Assembly: GCA_964534625.1 (NCBI GenBank)
Contig: CAZHRF010000036.1
Location: forward strand, 1 to 24,000
Length of the DNA stretch: 24,000 nt
Source: an uncultured archaeon
GTDB lineage: Archaea; Asgardarchaeota; Heimdallarchaeia; Heimdallarchaeales; Heimdallarchaeaceae
Direction: 5' to 3'
The notes below the pieces were generated by a model. It did no database searches. It was not told where the DNA came from and worked only from the letters and a program-made list of their open reading frames with translations. Below, piece after piece: positions 1 through 17,496 of the stretch. Position numbers and translations under genes: made by a program. Positions within the stretch are counted from its first letter, which is position 1, and each line of letters opens with the position of its first letter.

Positions 1-163
1 GTTACGTACCCAGTTGTACCCAAAAGAACTCATTGAAAAAAATTCAAGGAAAAAGCAATTAGCGGTATCAGTCCAATTTTTACTAATGGGATGTTAACGC
101 CAACTCTTTTTTCATTTTATAATTTATTCTCTAACTTAAACTTTCAACGAAAGGAAAGATCGT

Positions 164-1438
164 CTAATCTTTTTGTATTAAGCCATCTTTTACAAGTATT
201 TTTCCATTCTTTATCACAGTATTTACGTGATTTCTGCCAAATTGATAGGGTAAACTGGCAATTGATGGTATGTCCATAATCAGCAGATTAGCACGCATTT
301 CTAGATCCAATGTTCCCACTTGATTTTCTCTTTTTAATGATTTTGCACCACCATAAGTTGCTGCCTCCAACGCCTCCTTAGGAGTCATATGCATCATATA
401 ACACCCAAGTTCTATTACCGTTTGCATATTAATTAGATAACAATTTGGATTAAAATCTGTTGACAAAGCAACTGTGGCCCCAGCATCTTTAAACATTCTA
501 TAGTTGGCATATTTTTTTGACATTAAAACAAAGGGCGTTCCTGGTAACAAATTAGCTACTACTCCAGCATCCGCCATTGAACTAGCAGATATTGCTTCTG
601 CTTTTAATAAATGATCAGCTGAATCAGCTTTCATTTCAGAAGCTAATAGTGCAGCGCCTACATTTTCCATTTCGTCAGCATGCATTCTTATTTTGAACTT
701 GTAATCTTTCGCAGCACTAAGAAAAACCTTTGATTCTTCAACTGAAAATGCATTAAAATCCGTCCATATGTCTACATATTCAGCAAGATTTTTTCGTTTA
801 ATCTCTGGTAAAAGTTCTATCATTGATTCTACATACTCAAATGAATTACCGATAAAATCCTCCGGCATTACATGACATCCCAAAAAAGTTGGAATGATAT
901 CAACAGGATGCATTTCGTTTACTTCATTGGTTATTTCAAGTAAGTCTAGCTCTTTTTCTTGATTCAGACCATAACCAGATTTAGCTTCGATCATGGTTGT
1001 ACCATGTTTTAACATGATATCCAACCGTTCTAGTGCTAGTTCTTGCAATTCTTCTCTTTTTGCACTTCTAGTTTGTCTTACGGTATAATTGATTCCTCCA
1101 CCCGATTCAGCTATTTTTTGGTAAGAATCTCCTTTAAGTTTCATAGTTAATTCATGACTCCTATCGCCACCAAACACTAGATGGGTGTGCGAATCTACAA
1201 AACTAGGACAAACAATTTTCTTATTTTTGCAATCAATAATTTCATAATCTTTTCTCATAAAATCAGAAAATATTCTTGTAGTTTCTCCTATTGCTATTAT
1301 TTGACCATTTTTAATAACTAGGCAATCAGGATTTTCTTTATTATACACTGGTTCATATTTGGTAATTGCAGACGCAGGTCCAAGCAATAGTTCTGCAATA
1401 TTGGCAATGATAATGCCCTCACTTTCAGAGTTATCCAT
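164..1438 (-). CDS. hutI: Imidazolonepropionase (histidine utilisation; amidohydrolase superfamily)
   Basis: 424-aa ORF. Metal-binding 'FVDSHTHLVFGG' near the N-terminus, plus 'RMHADEM' and 'ALSTDFNPN' motifs in the order typical of HutI. Length is typical. Divergent from hutH. Confidence 0.9.
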   Translation of the reverse strand: MDNSESEGIIIANIAELLLGPASAITKYEPVYNKENPDCLVIKNGQIIAIGETTRIFSDFMRKDYEIIDCKNKKIVCPSFVDSHTHLVFGGDRSHELTMKLKGDSYQKIAESGGGINYTVRQTRSAKREELQELALERLDIMLKHGTTMIEAKSGYGLNQEKELDLLEITNEVNEMHPVDIIPTFLGCHVMPEDFIGNSFEYVESMIELLPEIKRKNLAEYVDIWTDFNAFSVEESKVFLSAAKDYKFKIRMHADEMENVGAALLASEMKADSADHLLKAEAISASSMADAGVVANLLPGTPFVLMSKKYANYRMFKDAGATVALSTDFNPNCYLINMQTVIELGCYMMHMTPKEALEAATYGGAKSLKRENQVGTLDLEMRANLLIMDIPSIASLPYQFGRNHVNTVIKNGKILVKDGLIQKD

Positions 1439-1577
1439 GTGGAAAAGTATCTATCACTTTATTTAATTTTTTTTGGTATGAAAATATCAAAAAGTATAAA
1501 GACTTCTCGAACACAATAAAAGTCCAGTAGTGAACAAAAATAATAAAAAGAACAAGTCAAATTTGGTTTGAGTACTG

Positions 1578-3110
1578 ATGGAGAACGCTTTAATTTCTTT
1601 AACCGGAGAAAACTTAACCCTATCTACCTTAATTTCTATTACTAGAGAAAGTAAAAAAATTAAAATTGCTGATGAGGCTATAAAAAGGATTTGTGAATCA
1701 AGACAGATTATTGAAAACAAAGTCAAACAAAACGAAACTATTTATGGTGTTACAACGGGTTTTGGAAAACTAGCAAATACAGCAATTGAAAAATCTGATC
1801 TAAAGAAACTCCAAGCAAACATAATTAAATCGCATAGTATCGGTTTTGGCAGTTCAATACCCGATGAAATTGTATTAGGAGCGATGGTTATTGCAGTAAA
1901 CTCTTTTTGTAAAGGTAATAGTGGTATTAGATTAGAAACTGTAAACATTTTAGTAGAACTAATTAATAGAAGAATTATCCCCCAAGTTCCAGAAACAGGT
2001 TCATTAGGCGCGAGTGGAGACCTAGCTCCGCTAGCATATATTGCTTGTGTTTTTTTAGGCGAAGGGTACGTAAAATACAATGATACAATTTTTCCTAGTA
2101 CTGATCTTCCCTCTAAATTCAATATCACCCCTCTAGAATTAGAAGCTAAAGAAGGATTAGCACTAGTAAATGGAACACATGTCTTAACATCATATAGTGC
2201 ACATTCAACATTTGATGCTATGAATATCATAAAAAATTCAGCTATTGCAGTAGCACTATCACTAGAAGCATATAGTGGAAATTTAGCAGCTTTTTCAGAT
2301 TTTATCATGAGAATGCGACCCCATAAAGGTCAGATTATATTTGCAAAAACCATTAGAGAATTAACAAAAGGTAGTGAGATTCTATCAGGTAAAAGAAAGA
2401 GAGTACAAGATCCTTATTCATTCCGTTGTTCTCCACAAGTACATGGGGCTGTTTTAGAGACCATAACATATTCTAAAAATATAATCGAAATAGAAATGAA
2501 TTCTTCAACAGATAATCCATTAATTAATAAAAACAAATCTGAAGTACTATCAGGTGGTAATTTTCATGGAGAACCTGTAGGCTTAAGTATGGATTATTTA
2601 GCAATAGCCCTCACAGAACTAGGTACAATATCAGAACGAAGAGTCAATCAATTACTAAACACCGTTCTTTCTGACTTACCGCCATTTTTAACAGACAAAC
2701 CTGGTTTAAATTCAGGTTTAATGATACTTCAATACGCTGACGCTGCCATTTCTTCTGAAAACAAAGTTCTAGCTTCTCCCGCATCAATAGACAATACACC
2801 GGTCTCAGCAGATCAAGAGGACCATGTATCTATGGGTATGACAGCCTGTAAGAAGGCGTATAAAATTGTAAAGAATCTTGAACAAATGATAGGGATTGAG
2901 ATATATACAGCTTGTCAAGCCTTAACATTCATCGAAAATAACCCCTCGCCGATACTTAAAGACATCTACGATACCATAAGAGAGGTTGTTACTCCATTAC
3001 GACAAGATAGAAAGTATGATACCGAGGTTTATTGGATTATCGAAAAACTCAAAGAGAGAAGATTTACAACCATGGTAAAAGAAAAATTAAAATCCCTATT
3101 TAGTGAATAA
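1578..3110 (+). CDS. hutH: Histidine ammonia-lyase (MIO-dependent aromatic amino acid lyase family)
   Basis: 510-aa ORF. 'GSLGASGDLAPLA' contains the Ala-Ser-Gly triad that forms the MIO cofactor. 'YGVTTGFG', 'LVNGT', 'SANQEDHVSMG'-like 'SADQEDHVSMG' are all present. Confidence 0.93.
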   Translation: MENALISLTGENLTLSTLISITRESKKIKIADEAIKRICESRQIIENKVKQNETIYGVTTGFGKLANTAIEKSDLKKLQANIIKSHSIGFGSSIPDEIVLGAMVIAVNSFCKGNSGIRLETVNILVELINRRIIPQVPETGSLGASGDLAPLAYIACVFLGEGYVKYNDTIFPSTDLPSKFNITPLELEAKEGLALVNGTHVLTSYSAHSTFDAMNIIKNSAIAVALSLEAYSGNLAAFSDFIMRMRPHKGQIIFAKTIRELTKGSEILSGKRKRVQDPYSFRCSPQVHGAVLETITYSKNIIEIEMNSSTDNPLINKNKSEVLSGGNFHGEPVGLSMDYLAIALTELGTISERRVNQLLNTVLSDLPPFLTDKPGLNSGLMILQYADAAISSENKVLASPASIDNTPVSADQEDHVSMGMTACKKAYKIVKNLEQMIGIEIYTACQALTFIENNPSPILKDIYDTIREVVTPLRQDRKYDTEVYWIIEKLKERRFTTMVKEKLKSLFSE

Positions 3111-3112
3111 AA

Positions 3113-3970
3113 ATGAAATTCGCAGTATTAGGAGATATTCATGGGAATTTGAAGAATCTGAAAAAGATAAGAGACGAATTAAAACTAGTTGATGCTATAT
3201 TTGTTACTGGAGATATAGCTGGAACAATCTCACTTAAGCATATAATTAAATCAATTATTCATTCTAAGAAGATTTCACGTAATGCATATGCAGAACTAGT
3301 ATACACAAAGTACAGAGAGGAGTTTACCAACTATCAATTAAAAACAACAAAAAAAACCTTGGATTTTTTTATTGATATCCAAAAGCCAGTTTTTGTTACT
3401 CATGGAAATGTGGAACTACCTGAAGTAAGAGAAATGTTGAAAAATTATTCGGTAGATCATCCACTTTTCTATTATTTGGGAAACAAAATTATTGAGTATA
3501 ATGGTCTAATAATAGTTGGCTATGGATATTGTACACCCGCAACATACAGAGAACCTTTACAGACGCCAGGTGAAAAAACAATTACCGAAATAAAAGCTGA
3601 TCTAATTACATTATCAGAAGAGATACGAAAAACTAGGAAGGGAGGTGAAAAGAGACTCATAGGATTGTTTCACGAACCGCCTAAGGGTACTAATCTTGAC
3701 TATATTGAAAAAGAAGATCTACATGGAGGAAGTCAAATACACCTTGAACACATCTCACAGATCAAGTATGATTATGTTTTTGTTGGCCATATCCATGAAT
3801 CCCCAGGATTGATTAAAAAAAATTCAGCAGTATGGTTAAATCCCGGACCAATGGTCTCGGGTAACTGGGCAAAGATAGAATTAAATAGCAACACCATTGA
3901 ATTCTTTGAAATAAAAAGATTAATTTCTATCAAAAAGTGGATTTATACCTTACGAGAAATATTCAAATGA
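3113..3970 (+). CDS. Calcineurin-like metallophosphoesterase, specific function unknown
   Basis: 285-aa ORF with the ordered metallophosphoesterase motifs 'GDIHGN', 'VTGDIAG', 'THGNVE', 'FHEPP' and 'GHIHE'. It starts 2 nt after the hutH stop (taa aa atg), so it is probably co-transcribed. Confidence 0.8.
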   Translation: MKFAVLGDIHGNLKNLKKIRDELKLVDAIFVTGDIAGTISLKHIIKSIIHSKKISRNAYAELVYTKYREEFTNYQLKTTKKTLDFFIDIQKPVFVTHGNVELPEVREMLKNYSVDHPLFYYLGNKIIEYNGLIIVGYGYCTPATYREPLQTPGEKTITEIKADLITLSEEIRKTRKGGEKRLIGLFHEPPKGTNLDYIEKEDLHGGSQIHLEHISQIKYDYVFVGHIHESPGLIKKNSAVWLNPGPMVSGNWAKIELNSNTIEFFEIKRLISIKKWIYTLREIFK

Positions 3971-4007
3971 AAAATAAGAAGAAAGTTATGAGTAAAGTTA
4001 CTTCAAA

Positions 4008-4394
4008 TTAGAGAACACGCTTCTTCTCGTCTCCTTTCCGTTTAATTGTAATAGATGAAGGAATGCCTTCTATTTTTCTTTCTAATTTTTTAATACCGAG
4101 ACGAGAGACTTGTCTTCCCTCTAAATAGCCGATTTTAATCAAATATAATACATTTAAGAATATGGTCTCAGCTGTTTCATTTTTATTTTCATTTTCATAG
4201 AGTTGTTTCCAGTATTCAAAGGCATCGGGTGCCAAAAAGTATTGCATTAATTGAAATTTATCATCTACCGTAACACTTCTAGGCGCTTGTTCAGCTTCTT
4301 TTAAGTCCTCCATTCGCTTCTTTCTTTTGTCTGCCATTTCCATTAATTTTTGAGCTTTTTTCTTTCTTATTGCTTCTAATTCATCAGATGTCAT
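4008..4394 (-). CDS. PDCD5/TFAR19-like double-stranded DNA-binding protein family (small basic helical protein)
   Basis: 128-aa ORF. It has an N-terminal charged helix ('ELEAIRKKKAQKLME'), then a region 'LMQYFLAPDAFEYW...', a helical core and a C-terminal 'ITIKRKG'. This matches the layout of archaeal and eukaryotic PDCD5-family proteins as I recall it. By-eye only. Confidence 0.55.
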   Translation of the reverse strand: MTSDELEAIRKKKAQKLMEMADKRKKRMEDLKEAEQAPRSVTVDDKFQLMQYFLAPDAFEYWKQLYENENKNETAETIFLNVLYLIKIGYLEGRQVSRLGIKKLERKIEGIPSSITIKRKGDEKKRVL

Positions 4395-4460
4395 GAATAT
4401 TCAACTCTATTTAACTCATTAAATAAAGCTCTTTTTAAAGCTTCTAATTGGTGTTAATAC

Positions 4461-4506
4461 CTATGAACCATCATTGCCCATATGCAAATGGATTCCTGGT
4501 TCATAG
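4461..4506. promoter_or_regulatory. Perfect 10-bp inverted repeat (ctatgaacca N26 tggttcatag) in the divergent promoter region upstream of the ubiquitin operon
   Basis: Read directly: 4461-4470 is the exact reverse complement of 4497-4506. An inner ccat/atgg pairing sits within the 26-nt spacer. It lies between two divergently transcribed genes, so it is not a terminator. Its function (operator or small RNA hairpin) is not established. Confidence 0.5.
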
Positions 4507-4677
4507 AAGTAGTCTCAGAAATATAAATCAATACAACCTAATGAGTATTTTGGATTAGAGAATTTAGAGCCTTGCTTAATTATGGAACTTTTCTAAGCGA
4601 TGATAATTTGCTAACATTTAAGTAGGTGAATACATTAGTAGTAAGTAATCAGTAATATTATGTACCGGTGATTAAAA

Positions 4678-4911
4678 GTGAAGATATCAATTGTAACTGC
4701 TATCGGTGGAGGACTAATAGAACTAGATGCTGATCCTCATTCAACTGTAGCTCAATTAAAACGCGAAGTAGCAAGAATCAAGAAAATTCCAGCTAACACG
4801 GTCATTTTAGTTTTTCAAGGACATCAATTAGACGACAGTCAAATCCTTAAAGAAGCAGGCATTATGGATGGAGACAAACTCTATATTATTGCTAGAACGA
4901 AGGGAGGATAA
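4678..4911 (+). CDS. Ubiquitin-like beta-grasp protein ending in a free Gly-Gly (eukaryote-type ubiquitin homologue)
   Basis: 77-aa ORF with a GTG start preceded by GGTGAT (about 4667-4672). It aligns collinearly by eye with 76-aa eukaryotic ubiquitin ('IP' at 37-38, 'LVFQGHQLDD' vs 'LIFAGKQLED', C-terminus 'ARTKGG' vs 'LRLRGG'). The stop codon follows GG directly. Confidence 0.85.
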   Translation: MKISIVTAIGGGLIELDADPHSTVAQLKREVARIKKIPANTVILVFQGHQLDDSQILKEAGIMDGDKLYIIARTKGG

Positions 4912-4951: not shown

Positions 4952-5968
4952 ATGTCTGATGATAAATCTCATGATAAATATTCTAGACAAGAATTAATAC
5001 CAGGTTGGGATCAATCTGCTTTAATAAATGCAAATGTAATTATTGCTGGAGTTGGGGCAATAGGGAGTTATGTAGCTACCATACTGGCTTCTTCTGGTAT
5101 TGGAAAACTTATCCTCATTGATATGGATAAGATTGAACTATCCAATCTGAACAGACAACTTTTATTTCGAGAATCAGATCTTAAGAGTTTTAAAGCGGAA
5201 ATTGCAGCAAAAAGATTGAAAAATTTAAATCAAGATGTTGAAATAATTCATTATAATAAAAAAATGGAAAAAGTTCCTCTTAGAGTTTATGAAGAAGCTG
5301 ATGTGATAATTGGATGTCTAGACACATTCATTGGAAGGAGATGGATTAATTCAATGGCTGTTAGACTAAAAAAACCACTCATTTTAGGTGGTATGTTCTC
5401 CTTTTTAGGTGATGTTCAAGTTATTTTTCCTTATGACACCCCTTGTTTTGAATGCCAACCTTTGGTTCCAGATGAAGAATTAGCTCAAGCTTGTACTCCC
5501 TTTGGTGATGTGAGAAAAGATGAACGTGAAGAAGAGGAGGAAGAAGCCAAATTACCGGCAGTAGCTACCCTATCGTCCATTATTGGGGGATGGATGGCAC
5601 AAGAAACAATAAAAATACTTTTGGAAATTGGAAATCCAATCAATAATTATTTGTTTTATGATGGCTTAAATAATGCCTATACAATTGTCCCCCTAGCAAG
5701 AAACAAAAATTGTCCAGCGTGTGGTGAATTATACAATCTTGAACAAATAAAATTTATCACATCCAATAATGAAACTACAAGAGATTTACTAGTACGTTTA
5801 AGCTTGTCTTATGGTCTAGAAAAACCCGAGATTATGATAGATGGAATGATATTAGAACAAGAAAAAAAGATCTCGTCATATAATCTTTCTAATGAGAAAC
5901 TTGCCTTTGTATTAGATACTTCTTTAGCAAAACCAATCAAAGTAGTGTTAGAAATAGTAGACCAATGA
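4952..5968 (+). CDS. E1-like ubiquitin/UBL-activating enzyme (ThiF/MoeB/UBA adenylation domain) with extra C-terminal domain
   Basis: 338-aa ORF. Rossmann ATP-binding 'IAGVGAIGS', 'DMDKIELSNLNRQ', and zinc-site pairs 'CFEC' (C165/C168) and 'CPAC' (C254/C257). A lone Cys181 ('AQACTPFG') sits in the crossover-loop position. It lies immediately downstream of the ubiquitin gene. Confidence 0.85.
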   Translation: MSDDKSHDKYSRQELIPGWDQSALINANVIIAGVGAIGSYVATILASSGIGKLILIDMDKIELSNLNRQLLFRESDLKSFKAEIAAKRLKNLNQDVEIIHYNKKMEKVPLRVYEEADVIIGCLDTFIGRRWINSMAVRLKKPLILGGMFSFLGDVQVIFPYDTPCFECQPLVPDEELAQACTPFGDVRKDEREEEEEEAKLPAVATLSSIIGGWMAQETIKILLEIGNPINNYLFYDGLNNAYTIVPLARNKNCPACGELYNLEQIKFITSNNETTRDLLVRLSLSYGLEKPEIMIDGMILEQEKKISSYNLSNEKLAFVLDTSLAKPIKVVLEIVDQ

Positions 5969-6042: not shown

Positions 6043-7470
6043 GTGATTACAATTTCTCATGATTACATTCTTGCTACTGAGATGCAACTAATTTATAATA
6101 ATGCGGGAGGATTTGAACCCGTACAAGGCAATTTAAAACGTTGGAAAGGTCAGGTAGGTACAATACAGGGTACATCTATTCCCATTTATGCTGAAATTAA
6201 AATTCAACCAAATTTTCCTCATAGCCCACCGGTTGTTAATATTCAACCCAAGTTAACACATCCTAATGTTAATGAATATGATGTTCTTAAGATGAGGGTG
6301 CTATCTAATTGGAATCCTAGAACACACATATACGAGGTTATTAATGAGATTAAGGCTTTATTTTCTACAGTACCCGCTAAACCTCTAAAATTCAAGCTAA
6401 AAGATAGTCCGTATAAAGAACCATCAAAATTACCTAGAACAGAACAGTCTAAGGATATTCCGCAAAAATTTAAATCTAGAAGCCAAGAGGTACTATTTGA
6501 ACAAGAAGTCAAAACTGATCCGCAAGTGACGAGAATCAGAAAAAAAATCCAAGCATACCAAACAAGGATAGAACAAATAAATAAAGAAATTGAAAGAGAG
6601 AGAGCAACTTTACTTGAAAATGCAGGTGTGCAAGTGAACAAAGATCAAGAGATAGAAGCATCACTCAATGATTTATATCAAGCAGACGTGAATGCCACTA
6701 GCGATCTCATCGAGATCTTAGGGGAAAAATTTGAAGATGGTGACCTTTCTGATGTTGATTATCTTAAATTGCATAGAAAGTATACTGCAAGAGTCTTCAA
6801 AACAAAAAAACAACTACAATTTATGGAAAATGCTGGTGATAAAATGGATAATAGAGATGAAAGAAGATTAGATCTAGAAGCAGACCTTTTTGCAGCAATT
6901 GTAACTTTAGAAAAGATAACTAAAGGATACCAACAACACGAGATTGAACAAATTGCTTATAAAAAACAACTTAGAGCACTAATCAAAAACATATTCAAAT
7001 CGAGAATGAGACTAGAACAAATAGGCGGCTTCAAACTAGACGAGTTTATTGAAAGAGAACAAATGGATCAGAAATATTCATTAGGAGTTAGACAGTTACG
7101 CGTAGCAGAAGGAGTTGAAACACCAGATTCTATTTCCAATGTAGCTTTACCATTTGATTCCTTGAAAAGAATGCCAAGACAAACAGCAGACTTTGTTTCA
7201 TCAGCAATTGAATTAATAGACTTAACGAGATTAAAATCCGTTGCTAGGGCAGATTTAATATTAGCAGATCTAGATGAGTTGATACATATTACAGAGACGT
7301 TTCCAAGTATTCCGGATGACTTCTGGATAATCGATGACATGAAGGATTGGAGAAAAATAGTTTCAAATTATGATACACAAGAAGTATTGAAGGGAGAGGA
7401 TTGTGAGAAACTAGAATTTCAAACCTCTAGATGGCTAAATGAATTCAGAAGATTACTTAAGGATCTTTAA
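6043..7470 (+). CDS. ESCRT-I fusion protein: Cys-less UEV (Tsg101/Vps23-like E2 variant) + coiled-coil stalk + steadiness-box-like segment + complete Vps28
   Basis: 475-aa ORF with a GTG start.
- N-terminus: E2 fold signature 'PNFPHSPPVVNIQPKLTHPNV', but Lys83 sits where the catalytic Cys would be, and there is no Cys in the first 450 aa.
- aa 205-262: 'LGEKFEDGDLSDVDYLKLHRKYTARVFKTKKQL' resembles the TSG101 C-terminal steadiness box.
- aa 275-475: aligns with Vps28 along its whole length, e.g. 'ADFVSSAIELIDLTRLKSVARADLILADLDELIHITETFPSIPDDF' and the C-terminal 'WLNEFRRLL'. Confidence 0.8.
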   Translation: MITISHDYILATEMQLIYNNAGGFEPVQGNLKRWKGQVGTIQGTSIPIYAEIKIQPNFPHSPPVVNIQPKLTHPNVNEYDVLKMRVLSNWNPRTHIYEVINEIKALFSTVPAKPLKFKLKDSPYKEPSKLPRTEQSKDIPQKFKSRSQEVLFEQEVKTDPQVTRIRKKIQAYQTRIEQINKEIERERATLLENAGVQVNKDQEIEASLNDLYQADVNATSDLIEILGEKFEDGDLSDVDYLKLHRKYTARVFKTKKQLQFMENAGDKMDNRDERRLDLEADLFAAIVTLEKITKGYQQHEIEQIAYKKQLRALIKNIFKSRMRLEQIGGFKLDEFIEREQMDQKYSLGVRQLRVAEGVETPDSISNVALPFDSLKRMPRQTADFVSSAIELIDLTRLKSVARADLILADLDELIHITETFPSIPDDFWIIDDMKDWRKIVSNYDTQEVLKGEDCEKLEFQTSRWLNEFRRLLKDL

Positions 7471-7538: not shown

Positions 7539-7859
7539 TTGGGAGAATGTATTATGGCACACAATGTTTCATCAGAAGCAATCTATCAAGAGATAAGAGA
7601 AGCTATCCTTGAATTGATCAATCTGATTGAAATTGATATTGATGTATCATACGTATTAGAAGAATTGGAAGAAATAAGATTCAAAATCAGAAAGATTAAT
7701 GTAAAAAACGGATCCGTACCAGAAGAAATAAATCAGGTGTTTAATAAGCTATATGACAAATACAAAAATAAAATGTCAGCTCCACTCTCATCAAGAGATA
7801 AAAGAAAACTTATCGAAAATCTAAAAGAATGGCTAATAAAAGCGGGTTCAATGTTCTAA
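7539..7859 (+). CDS. Small all-helical hypothetical protein located between the ESCRT-I and ESCRT-II genes
   Basis: The ORF is 106 aa from TTG 7539. A more likely start is ATG 7554 ('MAHNVSS...'), preceded by tgggag. Heptad-like helical sequence with no recognisable motif. Its conserved-looking operon position is the only functional hint. Confidence 0.55.
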   Translation: MGECIMAHNVSSEAIYQEIREAILELINLIEIDIDVSYVLEELEEIRFKIRKINVKNGSVPEEINQVFNKLYDKYKNKMSAPLSSRDKRKLIENLKEWLIKAGSMF

Positions 7860-7959: not shown

Positions 7960-8682
7960 TTGGGATTAAGAGAAATAGAAAAAAAATTAAAAATCAAATC
8001 AGCTTTTCAGGTGAAAGAAGCAGAATTAATGATTAAAGAATTAGAGCAAATGATAGAAAACACTAAAGAAACGAAAAAACAACTGCAAAAATTTGAAAAG
8101 AAATATAGCGATAAAATAAAACAGAACAAAGATTATTATGAAAAATTAGAGGGGCTCAGAGAAGAGTTAGGATTACCAAAAGAGATTGGGAGATACGATT
8201 GGAGAGACGCTCCATCTATGAAAGACAAATTAACTGGTGGCGGATACTATGATAGATTGGCTAATGAAATTATTGATTTGGGTAAAGAGTTAACGAAACA
8301 AAATGGAGGGATTATGGCGATAAGTGAACTGTTCACACAAGTTAATAAAGCAAGACCAGGAAACGTAGTTTCAATTGATGACCTGTATAAAGGGTTAGAG
8401 AAGTTAATAAATGCCTCGTTAATCGCACCTTTCAAAATATTGGAATCAGGAGTAAAAATTGTTGAATTCACACCGGTTGAATTCTCTCAAGATCATAGTC
8501 TTGTTTTAAGTTATGCATCCAAAACGGGATATATAACAAGAGAAGAATTACTTATGCAAACAAATTGGACAGAGGAAAGAATTAATCGTTGCCTTGTTTT
8601 CTTTGAAGAAAATAATATAGCGATTAAAGACGACGATTATGAAGAAGGAACAAAGTATTGGTTCCCGGGACTGGGACAATAA
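7960..8682 (+). CDS. vps22: ESCRT-II EAP30-domain protein (Vps22/Vps36-like, tandem winged helix) with N-terminal coiled coil
   Basis: 240-aa ORF with a TTG start. 'NGGIMAISELFTQVNKARPGNVVSIDDLYKGLEKL...KIVEFTPVEFSQDHSLVLSYASKTGYITREELLMQTNWTEERINRCLVFFEENNIAIKDD...YWFPGL' is collinear with SNF8/Vps22 ('GGLITLEEL...', 'MDHTVVLQLAEKNGYVT...WETERARQVLEHLLKEGLAWLD...YWLPAL') as recalled. Confidence 0.85.
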   Translation: MGLREIEKKLKIKSAFQVKEAELMIKELEQMIENTKETKKQLQKFEKKYSDKIKQNKDYYEKLEGLREELGLPKEIGRYDWRDAPSMKDKLTGGGYYDRLANEIIDLGKELTKQNGGIMAISELFTQVNKARPGNVVSIDDLYKGLEKLINASLIAPFKILESGVKIVEFTPVEFSQDHSLVLSYASKTGYITREELLMQTNWTEERINRCLVFFEENNIAIKDDDYEEGTKYWFPGLGQ

Positions 8683-8720: not shown

Positions 8721-9518
8721 TTAGAAGACTTTTTCATCATCAAAACGCATGATAGTCTTTTCCCTATTCAACCAGTGAGCTACCCCTTTATTCACTAAAA
8801 TATCGACAACATCAATCAAATCCTCAGGAGGTAAAGTTGCCCATTCTTCATCAAATTGTGATAAATCAAAAAGTGAGTGGACTTCCACTACTCGACCAGT
8901 TTCCAACATGAAATTAAGCAAATCTTCAGCAAATTCAGCGTTTGTTTTCCACTTGATTCGGGCTCTAAGTTTAGTTGTTTCTTCCTTTTTTAGCCCAAAA
9001 ATCTTAGCTAACCACGCAAAAAACCCTCGTTTTTGTTCTTCATCCAACCAGGTTGCGTAGTCTTTCTCACCTAAGTAACCAACTAAGTTCCTCAGCTGTT
9101 CAATGGATAACTCTTTTCCTATTTCTTCATTCTTAAATGGGTAAACAGTACGTATTTTATTGATACTAATAATATGAATCACATATAATTTAGTATAATC
9201 AAGAAGAACCTTTGACCATTTATCAGACCATGAACCTATTTTATCTGTACTTTTGGGGGAAATATACATCCACGGTTTGTTCACCCATTTAGGTAACATG
9301 TCCTCGAACTCTTTTTCTAATTTAACTTGTTGATCCTTCTTAGTTAAAAGTCCAGTTTGAGACCTATCTATAGCTTTAGTAGTTTGTAATTCTTCTTCCG
9401 ATATTTCAATTCCTTTCAAACTGGCCTCAATTAATTTAAGTTTCTCCTCTGAAATCTTTTTTTCTTTCTTCAATTCTTCAAGATTCACATCTATTGATTC
9501 TTTTTCTAACGTTGCCAT
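8721..9518 (-). CDS. vps25: ESCRT-II Vps25-like protein (tandem winged helix) with ~80-aa N-terminal coiled-coil extension
   Basis: 265-aa ORF. aa 80-265 are collinear with Vps25 as recalled ('PWMYISP...SWSDKWSKVLLDY' vs 'WQYRFPPFFTLQPN...QLAAWCSLVLSF'; second WH 'LFDLSQFDEEWATLPPEDLIDVVDILVNKGVA'). A GAGGT motif lies 7 nt before the ATG. The gene starts 16 bp after the Vps4 stop. Confidence 0.75.
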   Translation of the reverse strand: MATLEKESIDVNLEELKKEKKISEEKLKLIEASLKGIEISEEELQTTKAIDRSQTGLLTKKDQQVKLEKEFEDMLPKWVNKPWMYISPKSTDKIGSWSDKWSKVLLDYTKLYVIHIISINKIRTVYPFKNEEIGKELSIEQLRNLVGYLGEKDYATWLDEEQKRGFFAWLAKIFGLKKEETTKLRARIKWKTNAEFAEDLLNFMLETGRVVEVHSLFDLSQFDEEWATLPPEDLIDVVDILVNKGVAHWLNREKTIMRFDDEKVF

Positions 9519-9534
9519 CCAATTACCTCATATA

Positions 9535-10683
9535 TTATGCTGAACCAAATTCGGCAGCCCAATCTAGATATTTATTAACTTCTCGCTCATTAACGGAAGG
9601 ATTAATATCCTGTATTGCTCCAATAAAATCACTCATGTTTACATCACGGGCTTGTACAGTTTCATCACCTAATGCACCAATACTGTCCAAATCACGGATT
9701 GGTTTCATAATAGCCTCTCTACATATCATAGCTATATCGGCACCAGAGTAGCCTTCAGTAATCTCTGCGAGCTTACCATAATCAACATCAGATTCCATGT
9801 TAACTTCACGGGTATTATACTTGAAAATACCTTCTCTAGCCTCCAGATCAGGTAAACCAATATAAATACGTCTTTCAAATCGTCTTCTAAATGCAGCATC
9901 AATACCTTCGGGAAAGTTAGTGGCGCCAAGAACAACTATACGGTCTTCGTCTTTACTACTTAAACCATCCATTGAAGTTAATAATTCGTTTTTTACACGT
10001 CGTAAAGCATCATGTTCGCTACCCCTAGAACCCGTCATAGCATCAACTTCATCAACAAATACAATGGAAGGTTGTCTTTCTCTTGCTATCTCGAAAAGCG
10101 TTTTTACTAACTTTTCTGATTCACCCAACCATTTTGACATCAAGGAAGATGCTGAAACATTGAAAAATGAGGCTTCTATCTCAGAGGCTGTTGCACGGGC
10201 TAGTAAAGTTTTACCACAACCAGGCGGACCAAATAATAGAATCCCTTTCCAAGGTCTGCGTGCTCCCCTAAACAAATCGGGTCGCATCAATGGAAGTACT
10301 ATGGCTTCACGTAAGGTTTGTTTTGCAACACTTAAGCCAGCAATGTCATTCATTTTAACATTTGGTTTTTCTGTTACAATAAGGTCATCAATTGCACTTG
10401 CTAATTTATCGTTATCAGAATCCGTTGCTCGTGCTTTGTTCCTTGAACGCTCTTTGATTTTTTCTCTCAATTCTTTTGCACGATCAACGTACATTTCAGC
10501 TTTTTTACGAAGCTGCTTTGCTACCTGGATATTACGTTCAAAACGGATAGCTTGTGTTAAGGCTTCAGCTGCTTCTAGATAATAAGCTACAGCCTCACTA
10601 TATTGTTGATCTTTATCTAAATTGTATGCTTTTTTAGCTTTCTTTGTTGCTTGCTCTATTATACCTCTAGCAGACACGTACAC
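9535..10683 (-). CDS. vps4: Vps4-type AAA+ ATPase (N-terminal MIT domain + single AAA cassette)
   Basis: 382-aa ORF. MIT-like three-helix N-terminus ('YSEAVAYYLEAAEAL...KAEMYVDRAKELREK'). 'RPWKGILLFGPPGCGKT' (Walker A), 'SIVFVDEVD' (Walker B), 'SKWLGESEKLVKTLF', 'RRRFERRIYIGLP', and a C-terminal helix 'YLDWAAEFG'. The start may be the second GTG (10677), which has GAGGTG 5 nt upstream. Confidence 0.93.
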   Translation of the reverse strand: MYVSARGIIEQATKKAKKAYNLDKDQQYSEAVAYYLEAAEALTQAIRFERNIQVAKQLRKKAEMYVDRAKELREKIKERSRNKARATDSDNDKLASAIDDLIVTEKPNVKMNDIAGLSVAKQTLREAIVLPLMRPDLFRGARRPWKGILLFGPPGCGKTLLARATASEIEASFFNVSASSLMSKWLGESEKLVKTLFEIARERQPSIVFVDEVDAMTGSRGSEHDALRRVKNELLTSMDGLSSKDEDRIVVLGATNFPEGIDAAFRRRFERRIYIGLPDLEAREGIFKYNTREVNMESDVDYGKLAEITEGYSGADIAMICREAIMKPIRDLDSIGALGDETVQARDVNMSDFIGAIQDINPSVNEREVNKYLDWAAEFGSA

Positions 10684-10740
10684 ACCTCATCTTTATCTTG
10701 AAAGTTACAAGGGATGATTATAGTTGAAACGATATTAACA

Positions 10741-10754
10741 AGACGATTTCGTCT
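10741..10754. promoter_or_regulatory. Palindrome AGACGA-TT-TCGTCT about 60 bp upstream of the Vps4 start
   Basis: Read directly. It sits in the 219-bp gap that separates Vps4 from the upstream ESCRT-III genes, just upstream (in minus-strand sense) of an aactataatc TATA-like element. Candidate transcription-factor site only. Confidence 0.3.
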
Positions 10755-10902
10755 ATTGTATTAAATAGTTTCCCAATAAAGGTTAAACGTTCTTATTAAT
10801 AAAGTATAGCATATTATCTAACGTAAGGAGTAAACAACCTAACAACATATGTCAGAATAAGAGAAAATAAAAAGAAAAAGAGAGTTATATGTTTAATAGT
10901 AA

Positions 10903-11568
10903 CTAATCATCCGATATTTCTTCTTTCAAAGCTTCTAATTCCGCCTCTAGATCCGATGTATCTTCAACTTGAGAACTTCTTGATTTACCTGTTGAAACAG
11001 AGGGTAATTCATCATCTATATCTATAGATGGAAGATCCCCAGTTGTTTCCATATCCAACTCTGCTTGAAGTTGATCTAATTCATCGTCAATAGATATATC
11101 AAAATCATCTTCGAAAGCACCCTCTGAGAAACTCGTATCACCTAAGATCTCTTGGGACATAGATAATCTATCTTGTTGCATAGCTGCTTTATCCATAACT
11201 TCTGCAACACGTTTTTCATCAATTTTTCCCATTTGTTGCTCTACAACGTTTGTCCCCGTCTCCATCGCCTTAACCGTTTCTGAGGTTGATTTAGCAGTAT
11301 CTATGCTCTCCATTTGTGTTTGGAGATTCATTATCATATTTTGAGCTTGATTGATTTTTTTTAGATAAATTCTTCTTCTTTGCATTGCAGAGCGTGCGCC
11401 ATTTTTATTTCCACTTTTAAGCATCTTTGCAGCGAGTACTTTTTGCTCATCAGAAAGTCGCTCATAATTACGAATATTACGTTCAAGCTTATTTATTTGA
11501 GCTTTTAACACGGAAAGGGCTTGAGCGTCATCTCGCCTTTTGTCACCAAATAACCATTTTTTGACCAT
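10903..11568 (-). CDS. ESCRT-III protein, Snf7/CHMP4 (Vps20/32/60) class
   Basis: 221-aa ORF. Snf7-family core ('AAKMLKSGNKNGARSAMQRRRIYLKKINQ', 'VKAMETGTNVVEQQMGKIDEKRVAEVMDKAAMQQD') is collinear with CHMP4/Snf7 as recalled. Acidic C-terminal tail. A GGTGAT motif lies 6 nt before the ATG. The gene starts 14 bp after the upstream paralogue. Confidence 0.85.
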   Translation of the reverse strand: MVKKWLFGDKRRDDAQALSVLKAQINKLERNIRNYERLSDEQKVLAAKMLKSGNKNGARSAMQRRRIYLKKINQAQNMIMNLQTQMESIDTAKSTSETVKAMETGTNVVEQQMGKIDEKRVAEVMDKAAMQQDRLSMSQEILGDTSFSEGAFEDDFDISIDDELDQLQAELDMETTGDLPSIDIDDELPSVSTGKSRSSQVEDTSDLEAELEALKEEISDD

Positions 11569-11582
11569 AATATATCACCATC

Positions 11583-12194
11583 TTACTCTTCTTTATCACG
11601 AAGTTTTTGTATTTCAGCTTCTAAATCATCAACTTCTGCACCTACTGTGGGTAATGTGGTACCTGTTGTTATACCCATCTCAACTGCAGTTTGTTCAATT
11701 AACCTATCGACTTCTGACTCATCAGTATCACTCACAAGCATATCATCAATACCATCCTCTATTGTTTCCGTACTTGTTTCTATATTGTCGATAGACATTT
11801 CCATGTCTTGAATAACGCGATCCAAATCAGGTATTTGCAGTTGTGCATTAGCCATTCTTAGGGCGTCAGCAACACCGTGCATTTCTTCAGCCATTGAAGC
11901 GGCTGAATCAGCACGCTCTAACTTGAATATGAGACCATTAATTCTAGAAACCAATTTTTGATATCCTAGTGACCACTTGCGGCTGCGAACGATATCTGTA
12001 CTATATAACCTTGCGGCTTCCATATCACCTCGTTCAATAGCTTTACGCATTTTTTGTTCCATCTTTCTTTCATCAGAATCGATTTTACGTTGTGCGCGTT
12101 CAAGTCGTCGGATAGTAAGCTTAAGATTCACAATATGTTCTCTAGGTGAACTACTACCTGACCCAAATAACCAGCCAAAGAATGAACTAAACAT
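11583..12194 (-). CDS. ESCRT-III protein, CHMP1/Did2 (Vps2/24/46) class
   Basis: 203-aa ORF. 'RKAIERGDMEAARLYSTDIVRSRKW' vs CHMP1B 'KKAIQKGNMEVARIHAENAIRQKNQ'. C-terminal 'DDLEAEIQKLRDKEE' vs CHMP1B 'DELSQRLARLRDQV' (MIM1). The N-terminal 'MFSSFFGWLFG' resembles yeast Snf7 'MWSSLFGW'. Confidence 0.85.
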   Translation of the reverse strand: MFSSFFGWLFGSGSSSPREHIVNLKLTIRRLERAQRKIDSDERKMEQKMRKAIERGDMEAARLYSTDIVRSRKWSLGYQKLVSRINGLIFKLERADSAASMAEEMHGVADALRMANAQLQIPDLDRVIQDMEMSIDNIETSTETIEDGIDDMLVSDTDESEVDRLIEQTAVEMGITTGTTLPTVGAEVDDLEAEIQKLRDKEE

Positions 12195-15545: not shown

Positions 15546-15974
15546 TTAAGAAGAAAAACTCAATGCATAACCACATTTAGAGCAAAATTCATCTTTTTTG
15601 CTTTTCTTTACGCCACAGCTAGGACAAAACGCAATTTTTTTAATCTTGGATAATTCTTCTCCGCACTTTGAGCAAAACTCTTCTTCTTTTTTAAGTTTAT
15701 TTCCACAACTCGCACAATATTTAATACTTTTTACCACTTGTTGCTTTCTTTGTGGTTTTCTACTCTTTAACAATCGAATCTGTATCAAAACCATCACCAA
15801 CAAAATAAAACCAACTGATGCTATGACAACAAATACTATATCACCAGGTTGAACCAATAGCTTTTTATTATCTATTAGATTTGAAATCAGTCCATAGCTA
15901 CCATAAATGAGTCCAGCTATACCAAACAACAATTCTGTTACAATCCACGTTATTTTATCAATTTGAGATGGCAC
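15546..15974 (-). CDS. Membrane-anchored double zinc-ribbon protein
   Basis: 142-aa ORF with a GTG start. Two N-terminal hydrophobic helices and a basic linker. Then an internally duplicated unit 'C(A/P)SCG..KK..(E/D)EFCSKCG' (four CxxC pairs). Confidence 0.6.
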   Translation of the reverse strand: MPSQIDKITWIVTELLFGIAGLIYGSYGLISNLIDNKKLLVQPGDIVFVVIASVGFILLVMVLIQIRLLKSRKPQRKQQVVKSIKYCASCGNKLKKEEEFCSKCGEELSKIKKIAFCPSCGVKKSKKDEFCSKCGYALSFSS

Positions 15975-16086: not shown

Positions 16087-17496
16087 TCATAAATTGTTAT
16101 TAAAATATGATTCAAATTCTTGATTACTCAATATTCTATTCAATTCAGTATCTAATCTACTCTGTTCCATCATCAAACTACGTAATAGTTCATTCATTTT
16201 TCTAGTATTCCCTATTGTTTTTCTTCTTTGAATTAAGGACATTATTCTCCGTCTATTTTCTAAAAGTTTAGCTCTTAAATTATCGATAATTACTCGTTTA
16301 CTGTCTTTTCTTCTAATTTCAGTTCTCACTTCTCGTTTGTTTAACAAATAACCTTTTAAGAACTCCATATGTTCTTCATTGTTACGTTTCAAAAGATTAA
16401 TTGGTACAGTTTGATCCCGTATTTTTTCTATAATCTTTATGTTACTTATATTATAGTCGATATAATTATTTTTAATTTCAAAATACGTAGGAAGTTCATT
16501 AATTACTTTTTTTCTTCCAATCAACTTGTATATATCAGTATTTGTACGGAATTGTAACATTTCACCAAAAAAGAAAGACTCTTCCTTTGTTGGAGAAGTG
16601 AAAGAGAACAAACTAACAACACGGTCTAGTTTGATTCTAACATTGAAAAGTCCTTTCTCCCTTAAGAAATACAGATTATTGGTGGTAAAAACTAAGGTAT
16701 ACTTTTTAATTAAACCATTATTAATCCTCACATTAATTCTAGGAATGATAGCAATCAGTTCTTCTTGGGTTGAAGGTAATACTCTATGTATCTTTTTTAG
16801 TAAAGACCAATGATAGATAATATAATCAGTCTTTTTTTCAACCTTTTTGAATTCAAGTTCAAGATTATTAATTGATTTATTGATATTTTGTTTTAAATTG
16901 TCAAACCGAGTATCAAGAGCAGAAAGTAATTCTTCTGTAATCTCTATATGTTTAAGACTGACAAATCGCAAATAGTTCACAGATTCCAGTCGCTTCTTGA
17001 TCATAGAAAAAGCTTCTGAATCAAATTTTCGTAAGTGGTCAATGAATTCACTAATTTTTACCTGTAAAATAGTCAATTCTTGCTCTATCTCAGGAAATAG
17101 TTTGAGTTTGGCTTGTCGTCCTAGATGAACAATTTTAACTAGGTTATTGAATCTGTCAGTTAGATTCCTGATCGGCCCATAATACTCATATAAGCGGTCA
17201 TAACTTTTGTAAATCCTACTTGGAAGACTCTCATGATATGATTCGCCATCTTCAACGGTAGGACTACCACACATCTTACAAAACTTTAGTGCCATATATT
17301 TGGTGTGGTGTATATTGGTTTTACATTTATTACATATAGGTTCATTAGACTCTCTTTTGCAGTTATAGCAATAATAATTAACACTCCGTGTATAAACATG
17401 TTCTTTACAGAGAATGTTTTTACAAGATGTACAATAATATTTAGCTTGTAGAGAACAATAATTACAGTTAACAACCATGGGCATGAGAACCACCAA
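16087..17496 (-). CDS. Cys-rich (B-box-like zinc finger + zinc ribbons) coiled-coil protein with central beta-rich module
   Basis: The ORF is 469 aa from TTG 17496. ATG 17484 ('MPMVVNCNYC') is more likely, with a GGTGG motif 7 nt upstream. Ligand spacing is C-x2-C-x7-C-x2-C-x4-C-x2-H, followed by three more CxxC pairs. Long heptad regions at aa ~100-235 and ~385-460. A beta-rich segment lies at aa ~245-345. Confidence 0.6.
   Translation of the reverse strand: MVVLMPMVVNCNYCSLQAKYYCTSCKNILCKEHVYTRSVNYYCYNCKRESNEPICNKCKTNIHHTKYMALKFCKMCGSPTVEDGESYHESLPSRIYKSYDRLYEYYGPIRNLTDRFNNLVKIVHLGRQAKLKLFPEIEQELTILQVKISEFIDHLRKFDSEAFSMIKKRLESVNYLRFVSLKHIEITEELLSALDTRFDNLKQNINKSINNLELEFKKVEKKTDYIIYHWSLLKKIHRVLPSTQEELIAIIPRINVRINNGLIKKYTLVFTTNNLYFLREKGLFNVRIKLDRVVSLFSFTSPTKEESFFFGEMLQFRTNTDIYKLIGRKKVINELPTYFEIKNNYIDYNISNIKIIEKIRDQTVPINLLKRNNEEHMEFLKGYLLNKREVRTEIRRKDSKRVIIDNLRAKLLENRRRIMSLIQRRKTIGNTRKMNELLRSLMMEQSRLDTELNRILSNQEFESYFNNNL

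Follow-up and report, generated by a model that had tools for sequence, protein, structure and literature searches.

What does an E2-like domain without a catalytic Cys do next to the genes for ubiquitin and its activating enzyme, and where are the conjugating enzymes encoded? The question is raised by a stretch of 24,000 nucleotides (hereafter, the window) on contig C36 of a Heimdall-group Asgard archaeon, which carries a ubiquitin-ESCRT cluster. An earlier note on this DNA offered two explanations: either the conjugation enzymes are encoded elsewhere, or the E1 acts independently of an E2, as in SAMP/UbaA-type systems. We consider it likely that the Cys-less UEV (E2-variant) domain reads ubiquitin in ESCRT-I, with ubiquitin and a UBA3-like E1 encoded beside it and with E2, RING and JAB proteins encoded elsewhere in the genome.

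Positions 1-3970 of the window are occupied by unrelated metabolic genes, which makes an E2/RING pair directly upstream of the window in the same transcription unit unlikely. A conserved 128-aa ORF with no assigned function and no Pfam family (4008..4394, minus strand) adjoins the ubiquitin gene; it is 64% identical to a 130-aa ORF located immediately upstream of ubiquitin in Heimdallarchaeota AB_125, but its orientation is flipped relative to that genome. The plus strand then carries genes for ubiquitin (77 aa; 4678..4911), an E1-like ubiquitin-activating enzyme (338 aa; 4952..5968; ThiF, 204.9 bits) and a UEV-Vps23-Vps28 ESCRT-I fusion (475 aa; 6043..7470), followed by a small conserved ORF (7539..7859; 106 aa as listed, with a conserved core of ~84 aa) that matches no Pfam family above cut-off. 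The small ORF is 43% identical to an 84-aa ORF found at the same position in AB_125 and, given this position, possibly codes for a small ESCRT-I subunit. Further downstream are an ESCRT-II Vps22-like gene (7960..8682, plus strand; EAP30, 79.9 bits) and, on the minus strand, genes for a Vps25-like ESCRT-II protein (8721..9518; Pfam ESCRT-II, 50.7 bits), the Vps4 AAA ATPase (9535..10683; AAA 142.6, MIT 41.9 and Vps4_C 33.9 bits) and two ESCRT-III proteins of the Snf7 family (10903..11568, 75 bits; 11583..12194, 77.8 bits).

The gene order from ubiquitin through E1, the fusion, the small ORF, Vps22, Vps25 and Vps4 to the two ESCRT-III genes is identical in AB_125 and is also found in another genus; no E2, RING or JAB gene is present within 10 kb of either of these clusters. 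One related genus encodes its E1 on the opposite strand. In the window, ubiquitin and E1 lie directly upstream of the ubiquitin reader and on the same strand, as had been noted earlier, and the gene order and short intergenic gaps suggest that the three genes are co-transcribed. The arrangement has already been described for Heimdallarchaeia (PMC9192718; bioRxiv 10.1101/2023.07.25.550441), and the cluster studied here is an ordinary member of the described system.

By its sequence, the 475-aa protein is the Heimdallarchaeial UEV-Vps23-Vps28 ESCRT-I fusion and an orthologue of HeimAB125_14070 (OLS31938.1; Hatano et al. 2022, PMC9192718; Lu et al. 2023, bioRxiv 10.1101/2023.07.25.550441), with which it shares 51% identity over 99% of its length, the domain order and the gene neighbourhood. 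Its VPS28 match (46.2 bits) is above the cut-off of 24.5; Vps23_core scored 14.8 bits against a cut-off of 26.8, and the family (PF09454) is listed for many orthologues. The ESCRT-I parts, which are separate subunits in eukaryotes, are joined to Vps28 in one chain here. The UEV domain spans approximately residues 1-117 (6043..6393, plus strand). The UQ_con score was 40.7 bits over residues 50-116, above the gathering cut-off of 27, and the Pfam UEV family (PF05743), which is present in precomputed domain lists of some orthologues, scored 17.4 bits, below its own cut-off of 27. In both respects, and in keeping the HPN motif, the domain differs from that of TSG101.

Read in frame, positions 6259-6300 encode H-P-N-V-N-E-Y-D-V-L-K-M-R-V. 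The HPN motif (H73-P74-N75; 6259..6267, plus strand) is intact, as the earlier note had it, except for a trivial slip in numbering ("THPNV" corresponds to residues 72-76, not 73-76). Lys83 (codon 6289..6291), located 10 residues past His73, shares its column with the catalytic Cys of UBE2E1 and UBE2L3 in a sequence alignment to solved E2s, and it aligns exactly with the engineered Lys of the UBE2L3 C86K entries. The only Cys of the whole protein, C454, is in the Vps28 part, which bears out the earlier observation that the E2-fold domain has none. Since Lys replaces the catalytic Cys, the domain cannot be expected to form a thioester. Active E2s (UBE2E1, UBE2L3 and UbcH5) have the same fold and HPN motif and likewise place the active-site residue 10 positions further on, but in them this residue is the Cys that Lys83 replaces here, and their UBC core is ~150 residues long compared to ~117. 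The AB_125 fusion, which comes from a different genus, likewise keeps HPN and has no catalytic Cys, with Ser at this position instead of Lys, and the UEV of eukaryotic Vps23/TSG101 is likewise an E2 fold without Cys that occupies the N-terminal part of an ESCRT-I subunit. The earlier assignment of the domain as a UEV rather than a conjugating enzyme is supported in that it is a Cys-less E2 variant within an ESCRT-I subunit.

The enzymes that write and erase ubiquitin marks were sought by genome-wide HMM searches with UQ_con, JAB, zf-RING_2, U-box, OTU and USP. On contig C36, the UEV domain was the sole match, and Pfam scans of all plausible ORFs of the window revealed no further E2, E3 or deubiquitinase, so that two earlier claims, that the window has no E2 fold besides the UEV domain and that no such enzymes accompany it in the 24 kb, hold for these families. 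With a Prok-RING_1 match below cut-off (E 0.03, 14.7 bits), a 142-aa double zinc-ribbon protein (15546-15974) is not a RING.

Elsewhere in the genome, UQ_con matched proteins encoded on contigs C1 (117 bits), C72 (93 bits), C5 (a second UEV) and C94 (a weak match). The genome encodes two Cys-bearing E2s, those of C1 and C72, and one UFC1-like E2. Three JAB proteins (on C16, C72 and C94) and at least seven zf-RING_2 matches above cut-off, none of them on C36, were also found. The U-box, OTU and USP families had no match in the genome, which is 90% complete, and since the OTU control matched nowhere, this result is not proof of absence; further partners may be unassembled. The searches support the first of the two earlier explanations, namely that the enzymes for conjugating, ligating and removing ubiquitin have their genes on other contigs, in trans. 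The same kinds of parts (ubiquitin ending in Gly-Gly, ThiF-type E1 with a catalytic Cys, E2, RING and JAB) make up the operons of Ca. Caldiarchaeum subterraneum and of Helarchaeial genomes (PMC5654768; bioRxiv 10.1101/2023.07.25.550441), but here the set is split, with ubiquitin and E1 residing among ESCRT genes and the E2 (on C1), RING and JAB genes scattered.

The 77-aa protein scored 49.1 bits with Pfam ubiquitin, above the cut-off of 25.4, and aligned to eukaryotic ubiquitin (residues 5-76) without a gap. Because the chain ends Gly-Gly-stop, no processing is needed. Its best single-domain PDB matches (E 9e-16 to 5e-15) were four entries deposited as "Ubiquitin-like protein", which we take to be Caldiarchaeum ubiquitin. 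The protein has His49 at the position of K48 and Val45 at the position of I44; the latter residue is shared with the ubiquitin patch that is bound in AB_125.

The E1 consists of a ThiF adenylation domain with catalytic Cys181, four zinc Cys and a C-terminal ubiquitin-fold domain (approximately residues 266-336). C181, C165, C168, C254 and C257 are conserved without exception in 35 orthologues. The model of the protein (pLDDT 85.9) has a beta-grasp C-terminus, and among known structures it matches UBA3 best (Z 33.5, rmsd 2.7 A over 312 residues, covering model residues 5-337), whereas MoeB and ThiF align to residues 4-258 only. All three features of canonical UBA3/Uba1-type enzymes are present: a ThiF domain, a crossover-loop catalytic Cys and a ubiquitin-fold domain at the C-terminus. 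As judged from the model, the enzyme is of the E2-dependent type by virtue of its UBA3-like ubiquitin-fold domain, the part that recruits E2.

One E2 stands out as a likely partner. The orphan E2 encoded on C1 (198223-198690) is a 156-aa protein with catalytic Cys85, which is invariant in seven aligned sequences. E2s of this type are present in all 31 genomes of the family (75-82% identity), although in one of them the E2 is split over two contigs. Pfam scans of the proteins encoded next to it (a 320-aa coiled-coil/Pro-rich protein, a 202-aa Zn-ribbon protein and a 60-aa ORF) gave no match above cut-off. The Pro/Thr-rich coiled-coil proteins that adjoin the C1 E2 and the C5 UEV were considered as possible paralogues; BLASTP detected no significant similarity between them.

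In Ca. Freyarchaeum deiterrae, orthologous genes form a Ub-E2-E1 operon, whose products find their best matches here in the C36 ubiquitin (47% identity), the C1 E2 (47%) and the C36 E1 (48%). The Freyarchaeum E2 matched the C1 E2 with 140 bits (62 for the next match) and the Freyarchaeum E1 matched the C36 E1 with 321 bits (164 for the next match). On these sequence comparisons, the C1 E2 is the orthologue of the E2 inside the Freyarchaeum operon. The predicted complex of the window E1 with the C1 E2 scored 0.70, and the best of three controls scored 0.03; among solved complexes, 58 of 80 attained that mark, as did 2 of 110 mismatched pairs, and a pass may reflect likeness to solved E1-E2 complexes rather than binding of this particular pair. 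Contacts agreed between runs by at least 82%, with a partner pLDDT of at least 89. In the predicted interface, the ubiquitin-fold domain of the E1 (residues 293-330) meets helix 1 of the E2, and both C181 of the E1 and C85 of the E2 are among the touching residues. Orthology to an operon of another class and the predicted complex together make the C1 E2 the likely partner of the window E1; the two other E2-type proteins of the genome could cross-react with it.

These results bear directly on the second earlier explanation, according to which the cluster E1 would pass ubiquitin straight to its targets in the UbaA/SAMP manner, so that the ESCRT pathway would need neither E2 nor E3. The composition of the cluster, which is devoid of E2, E3 and deubiquitinase genes here and in relatives, agrees with such a scheme, as does a ubiquitin that needs no processing, and Haloferax SAMP/UbaA indeed resembles the locus in having a ThiF-family E1 beside a small beta-grasp Gly-Gly modifier and no nearby E2. 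However, the E1 of the window carries the E2-recruiting domain that lies beyond the region aligned with MoeB and ThiF, the modifier is above the Pfam ubiquitin cut-off and gapless to eukaryotic ubiquitin, and the genome encodes conserved E2s, including the orphan with a catalytic Cys that every genome of the family possesses. In Freyarchaeum, the orthologues of ubiquitin and E1 flank the orthologue of this very E2, and an E1-E2-RING cascade of Helarchaeial origin is functional in vitro (bioRxiv 10.1101/2023.07.25.550441). Since writers are encoded elsewhere, the E1 has a UBA3-like ubiquitin-fold domain with an invariant Cys and the orphan E2 is conserved, we consider E2-independent transfer very unlikely and do not retain the second explanation.

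Whether the E2-like domain is a UEV or an E2 was also approached through its fold. An AlphaFold model of the domain (pLDDT 82.8) has the UBC/UEV fold. Foldseek aligned it to E2s (UBE2E2, UbcH5) with TM-scores of 0.65-0.71, active E2s ranking first, and VIA structural matches included the UEV-like domain of VPS37A (Z 14.6), Ube2V1 (Z 13.7) and active E2s (Z 12-13). The best PDB sequence matches were active E2s as well (E 8e-8 to 1e-7). Fold comparison failed as a means to tell UEVs from E2s, with UEV-type and active E2 chains tied within ~1-2 Z units.

Ube2V1, being one of the two best structural matches, brings up a role of the Mms2/Uev1 kind, in which the domain would pair with an active E2, hold an acceptor ubiquitin in position and build chains at the ESCRT site, instead of or besides reading cargo; an active orphan E2 is indeed present in every genome of the family. 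We give this possibility very little weight: the tie just mentioned places ordinary E2s alongside the top structural rows, the fusion to Vps23 and Vps28 parts fits a cargo reader, and a published phylogeny puts Asgard UEVs with eukaryotic Vps23 (PMC9192718).

The HPN motif is invariant in 28 of 28 orthologues of the fusion, and the Cys column contains Ser in 24 of them, Lys in 2, Asn in 1 and Ala in 1, and Cys in none. With HPN present throughout and Cys nowhere, the combination is not due to chance. Lys at this position is confined to the lineage of the genome studied here. The UEVs of Tsg101 and Mms2 have lost HPN, and TSG101 has Tyr at the Cys position. The Pfam scores, with UQ_con above and UEV below cut-off, count against the UEV reading, as does the retention in every orthologue of HPN, which is a motif of active E2s; on account of this motif, the domain appears more E2-like than classical UEVs, and it may conceivably have a residual chemical role. 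No discussion of the HPN motif of Asgard UEVs was found in the literature searched, and a minor new point is that HPN does not vary in Heimdall UEVs, whereas Ser, Lys, Asn or Ala may occupy the Cys position.

A chemical role could take the form of a reader that is covalently self-loaded, the E1 charging the Ser or Lys of the UEV so that ubiquitin would be stably attached to ESCRT-I through an oxyester or isopeptide bond. Next to the invariant HPN, a Ser or Lys nucleophile occupies the Cys column in 26 of the 28 orthologues, the adjacency of the Ub, E1 and UEV genes is conserved, and K83 matches the engineered Lys of the UBE2L3 C86K entries, which are stable E2-Ub isopeptide mimics. If true, self-loading would be a natural counterpart of engineered E2 Cys-to-Ser and Cys-to-Lys conjugates, would leave ESCRT-I pre-ubiquitylated or self-regulated and would account for the UEV gene being accompanied by ubiquitin and E1 but by no E2. 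The Asn of HPN also serves the E2 fold in a purely structural way, which speaks against the proposal. We regard self-loading as very improbable, since the column also admits Asn and Ala, which are not acylatable, and since the AB_125 orthologue binds ubiquitin non-covalently in the absence of E1 and in a V45-patch-dependent manner (PMC9192718).

Our preferred reading remains that of a Cys-less UEV that reads ubiquitin in ESCRT-I while the writers are supplied in trans. Binding of ubiquitin by this UEV may be expected from experiments on its 51%-identical orthologue, as the UEV of HeimAB125_14070 was found to bind ubiquitin via the V45 patch by chemical crosslinking and yeast two-hybrid analysis (PMC9192718) and also by SPR (bioRxiv 10.1101/2023.07.25.550441). 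The orthologue resembles eukaryotic Vps23/TSG101 in binding the hydrophobic patch of ubiquitin (PMC9192718).

According to the preferred reading, the 77-aa ubiquitin would be made ready to use, ending in Gly-Gly. The UBA3-like E1 would adenylate it and then hold it as a thioester on Cys181, and the C-terminal ubiquitin-fold domain of the E1 would recruit a separately encoded E2, most likely the C1 orphan. RING ligases and JAB deubiquitinases from other contigs would complete the cycle. The UEV would read tagged cargo by non-covalent binding of ubiquitin, and, past the Vps23-type stalk and steadiness box that follow it in the chain, the Vps28 C-terminal domain would hand over to ESCRT-II, ESCRT-III and Vps4, which are encoded just downstream.

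The link between ubiquitin and ESCRT in Asgard archaea holds a central place in ideas about the origin of eukaryotic membrane trafficking. For the genome studied here, our analysis adds that writers exist and are encoded in trans, that the E1 is, as modelled, of the E2-dependent type, and that the C1 orphan E2 can be named as a candidate for reconstitution.

Read in frame, positions 6259-6300 encode H73-P-N-V-N-E-Y-D-V-L-K83-M-R-V of the 475-aa UEV-Vps28 fusion protein, with Lys83 located exactly 10 residues past His73. HMMER alignments to solved E2s place K83 opposite the catalytic Cys of UBE2E1 and, in UBE2L3 entries, opposite a Lys engineered at that site. Direct reading and alignment thus bear out the claim of the earlier note that Lys83 occupies the E2 active-site position next to an intact HPN motif; the only slip was in numbering, THPNV being present at aa 72-76 and not 73-76. 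As was also claimed, the E2-like domain has no Cys, the sole one in the fusion being C454. Among 28 UEV-Vps28 orthologues, HPN is invariant (28/28), while the Cys column varies: 24 have Ser, two have Lys (the window protein and a relative at 93%), and one each has Asn and Ala.

Residues 1-126, modelled with AlphaFold (pLDDT 82.8), adopt the UBC/UEV fold. Foldseek matched it to UBE2E2 and UbcH5 with TM-scores of 0.65-0.71, and VIA gave Z scores of 14.6 for the VPS37A UEV-like domain, 13.7 for Ube2V1 and 12-13 for many active E2s. Since UEVs and active E2s score alike, the fold is certain yet does not separate the two; it is the missing Cys, not the fold, that sets the domain apart as a UEV. The fusion gene (6043-7470, + strand) matches UQ_con (40.7 bits) above and UEV (a weak 17.4 bits) below the Pfam cut-off, along with VPS28 (46.2 bits) and, weakly, Vps23_core (14.8 bits). 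Judged by these scores and the invariant HPN, the UEV domain is more E2-like than classical UEVs.

The reading of the domain as a UEV is correct and has already been published. Along its whole length, the fusion shares 51% identity with HeimAB125_14070, the Heimdallarchaeota AB_125 UEV-Vps23-Vps28 fusion, which lacks the catalytic Cys and whose UEV binds ubiquitin in a manner dependent on ubiquitin V45, as determined by crosslinking and yeast two-hybrid analysis (Hatano et al., PMC9192718). UEV-Vps28 binding to ubiquitin was measured by SPR, and UEV-Vps28 was stated to co-locate with ubiquitin in Heimdallarchaeia (Lu et al., bioRxiv 10.1101/2023.07.25.550441). The window ubiquitin aligns without gaps to eukaryotic ubiquitin, V45 being at the I44 position. 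We conclude that the window cluster belongs to an already described system, as a new member in a different genus. A second Cys-less UEV paralogue of 219 aa is encoded on contig C5 of the same genome (L020:6307-6966, - strand); it keeps HPN, has Ser in place of the Cys, continues into a coiled coil and is without Vps28, and its UEV domain shares 44% identity with that of the window protein.

In E2s, a Lys at the Cys position has been engineered to trap a stable ubiquitin isopeptide, and a Ser there gives oxyesters in mutants. One can thus conceive of the UEV being loaded covalently with ubiquitin by the neighbouring E1, as the prevalence of Ser in the column and the Lys of the window protein would allow; however, Asn and Ala also occur there and ubiquitin binding by the AB_125 protein needs no E1, which makes covalent loading very improbable.

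The genome (3.37 Mb, 120 contigs, 32% G+C) is 90% complete, and the window covers the opening 24 kb of contig C36, which is 32.8 kb long. By ORF reading and Pfam matches, genes for a 77-aa ubiquitin with a C-terminal Gly-Gly-stop (4678-4911) and a ThiF-type E1 (4952-5968) precede the fusion gene, which is followed by a small ORF (7539-7859), an EAP30/Vps22 gene (7960-8682), and, on the minus strand, Vps25, Vps4 and two ESCRT-III genes of the Snf7 family (8721-12194). On either side are Pfam-recognised genes of unrelated metabolism: upstream, those for an amidohydrolase, a lyase of the histidine ammonia-lyase type and a phosphoesterase; downstream, those for Rnf subunits and glycogen enzymes. 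Between the Rnf and glycogen genes lie those for a 142-aa protein (15546-15974, - strand) with a double zinc ribbon and an N-terminus weakly matching, below threshold, small membrane-protein families, and a 469-aa protein (16087-17496, - strand) with a weak DZR_2 match; both were rejected as RING proteins. An ORF at 4008-4394 (- strand) encodes a basic, helical 128-aa protein without a Pfam family that is 64% identical to the product of an AB_125 ORF directly upstream of ubiquitin and is inverted here; judged by position only, a 133-aa ORF occupies the matching place in L023, the cluster locus of a third genus (a GCA_054001415.1 contig). The 128-aa window ORF may be an unrecognised cluster component.

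AB_125 shares the gene order from ubiquitin through ESCRT-III and L023 shares most of it, and no E2, RING or JAB gene is found within 10 kb of either cluster. In L023, the E1 gene (8767-9819, - strand) is flanked by the ubiquitin and UEV-Vps28 genes but is on the opposite strand. Thus, a single transcript is not universal: the cluster is conserved, its operon structure is not.

Whole-genome HMM searches revealed no second UQ_con match on C36 and none for JAB, zf-RING_2, U-box, OTU or USP there, in agreement with the absence of E2, E3 and deubiquitinase alongside ubiquitin and E1 noted earlier. Of the two explanations then offered, the first, conjugation enzymes encoded elsewhere, is the one upheld: the writers are on other contigs. 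On C72, a second set is complete and lies on a single strand, with an HPN- and Cys-bearing E2, a JAB protein, a RING-H2 membrane protein, a modifier whose last residues are Ala-Gly, and an E1 of its own. A third set on C94 (L017, 1-6461) comprises an E1 truncated by the end of the contig (1-789), a 357-aa JAB protein (795-1868), an 87-aa modifier ending in Val-Gly-stop (1929-2192) and a 165-aa E2 (2301-2798) whose best Pfam match, UFC1 (22.8 bits), is just under the cut-off; EAP30/Vps22-like (2935-3987, 25.7 bits) and SPFH/Band-7 (4029-4676) proteins follow, so that the set looks like a UFM1-type system adjoining an ESCRT-II-like gene. C1 encodes an orphan 156-aa E2 with a catalytic Cys and the strongest UQ_con match in the genome (117 bits), C16 an orphan 289-aa JAB/MPN protein (L034:3708-4577), and seven zf-RING_2 matches above the Pfam cut-off are on contigs other than C36. 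The published AB_125 inventory, two Cys-bearing and two Cys-less E2s (PMC9192718), agrees with that of the window genome. About 7 kb from the orphan JAB/MPN protein, a 687-aa protein (C16 28346-30409; L034:11347-13410, - strand) has weak sub-threshold PCI (E 6e-8) and two winged-helix matches, no stretch passing alone, and a C-terminal RING match under the cut-off (20.8 bits).

The second explanation, an E1 acting independently of E2 as in SAMP/UbaA-type systems, is not supported. Canonical E1s recruit E2 by their ubiquitin-fold domain. The predicted E1 model (pLDDT 85.9) has a beta-grasp domain at its C-terminal end (~266-336), and VIA aligned residues 5-337 to UBA3 12-442 (Z 33.5, rmsd 2.7 A, 312 residues), a span that includes the ubiquitin-fold domain of UBA3; MoeB and ThiF align over 4-258 only. 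Such a domain argues against a UbaA-like, E2-free mechanism, and the window E1 is of the E2-dependent kind. Its crossover-loop Cys181 and four zinc-binding Cys are invariant in 35 orthologues. A 417-aa relative on a 2-kb contig (P0143, 51% identity to the window E1) has ubiquitin and ThiF Pfam domains in one protein and is either a natural fusion or a mis-called gene pair.

The C1 E2 is the candidate partner. It is present in 31/31 family genomes at 75-82% identity (apart from one in which it is split across two contigs) and is better conserved than the E1 (61-70% among the closest, Heimdallarchaeaceae-level matches) or the fusion (about 51-55% among relatives, bar one at 93%); its Cys85 is invariant in 7 aligned sequences. 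Active orphan E2 orthologues of the largest genus have H-A-N, not H-P-N, before the catalytic Cys, whereas the Cys-less UEVs have H-P-N throughout. When the E1 and the C1 E2 were modelled as a complex, the prediction passed its controls, scoring 0.70 (best of 3 controls, 0.03), a mark reached by 58/80 solved complexes and 2/110 mismatched pairs; at least 82% of contacts agree between runs and partner pLDDT is at least 89. The predicted interface would set the ubiquitin-fold domain against E2 helix 1 and include both catalytic cysteines. As E1-E2 complexes have already been solved, the prediction shows likeness to them, not binding of this pair.

The E1 orthologue of Ca. Freyarchaeum deiterrae is part of a Ub-E2-E1 operon, whose products find their best matches in the window genome in the window ubiquitin (47%), the C1 E2 (47%, 140 bits vs. 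62 for the C72 E2) and the window E1 (48%, 321 vs. 164 bits). The Heimdall genome thus resembles a split version of this operon, its ubiquitin and E1 genes being set beside ESCRT-I.
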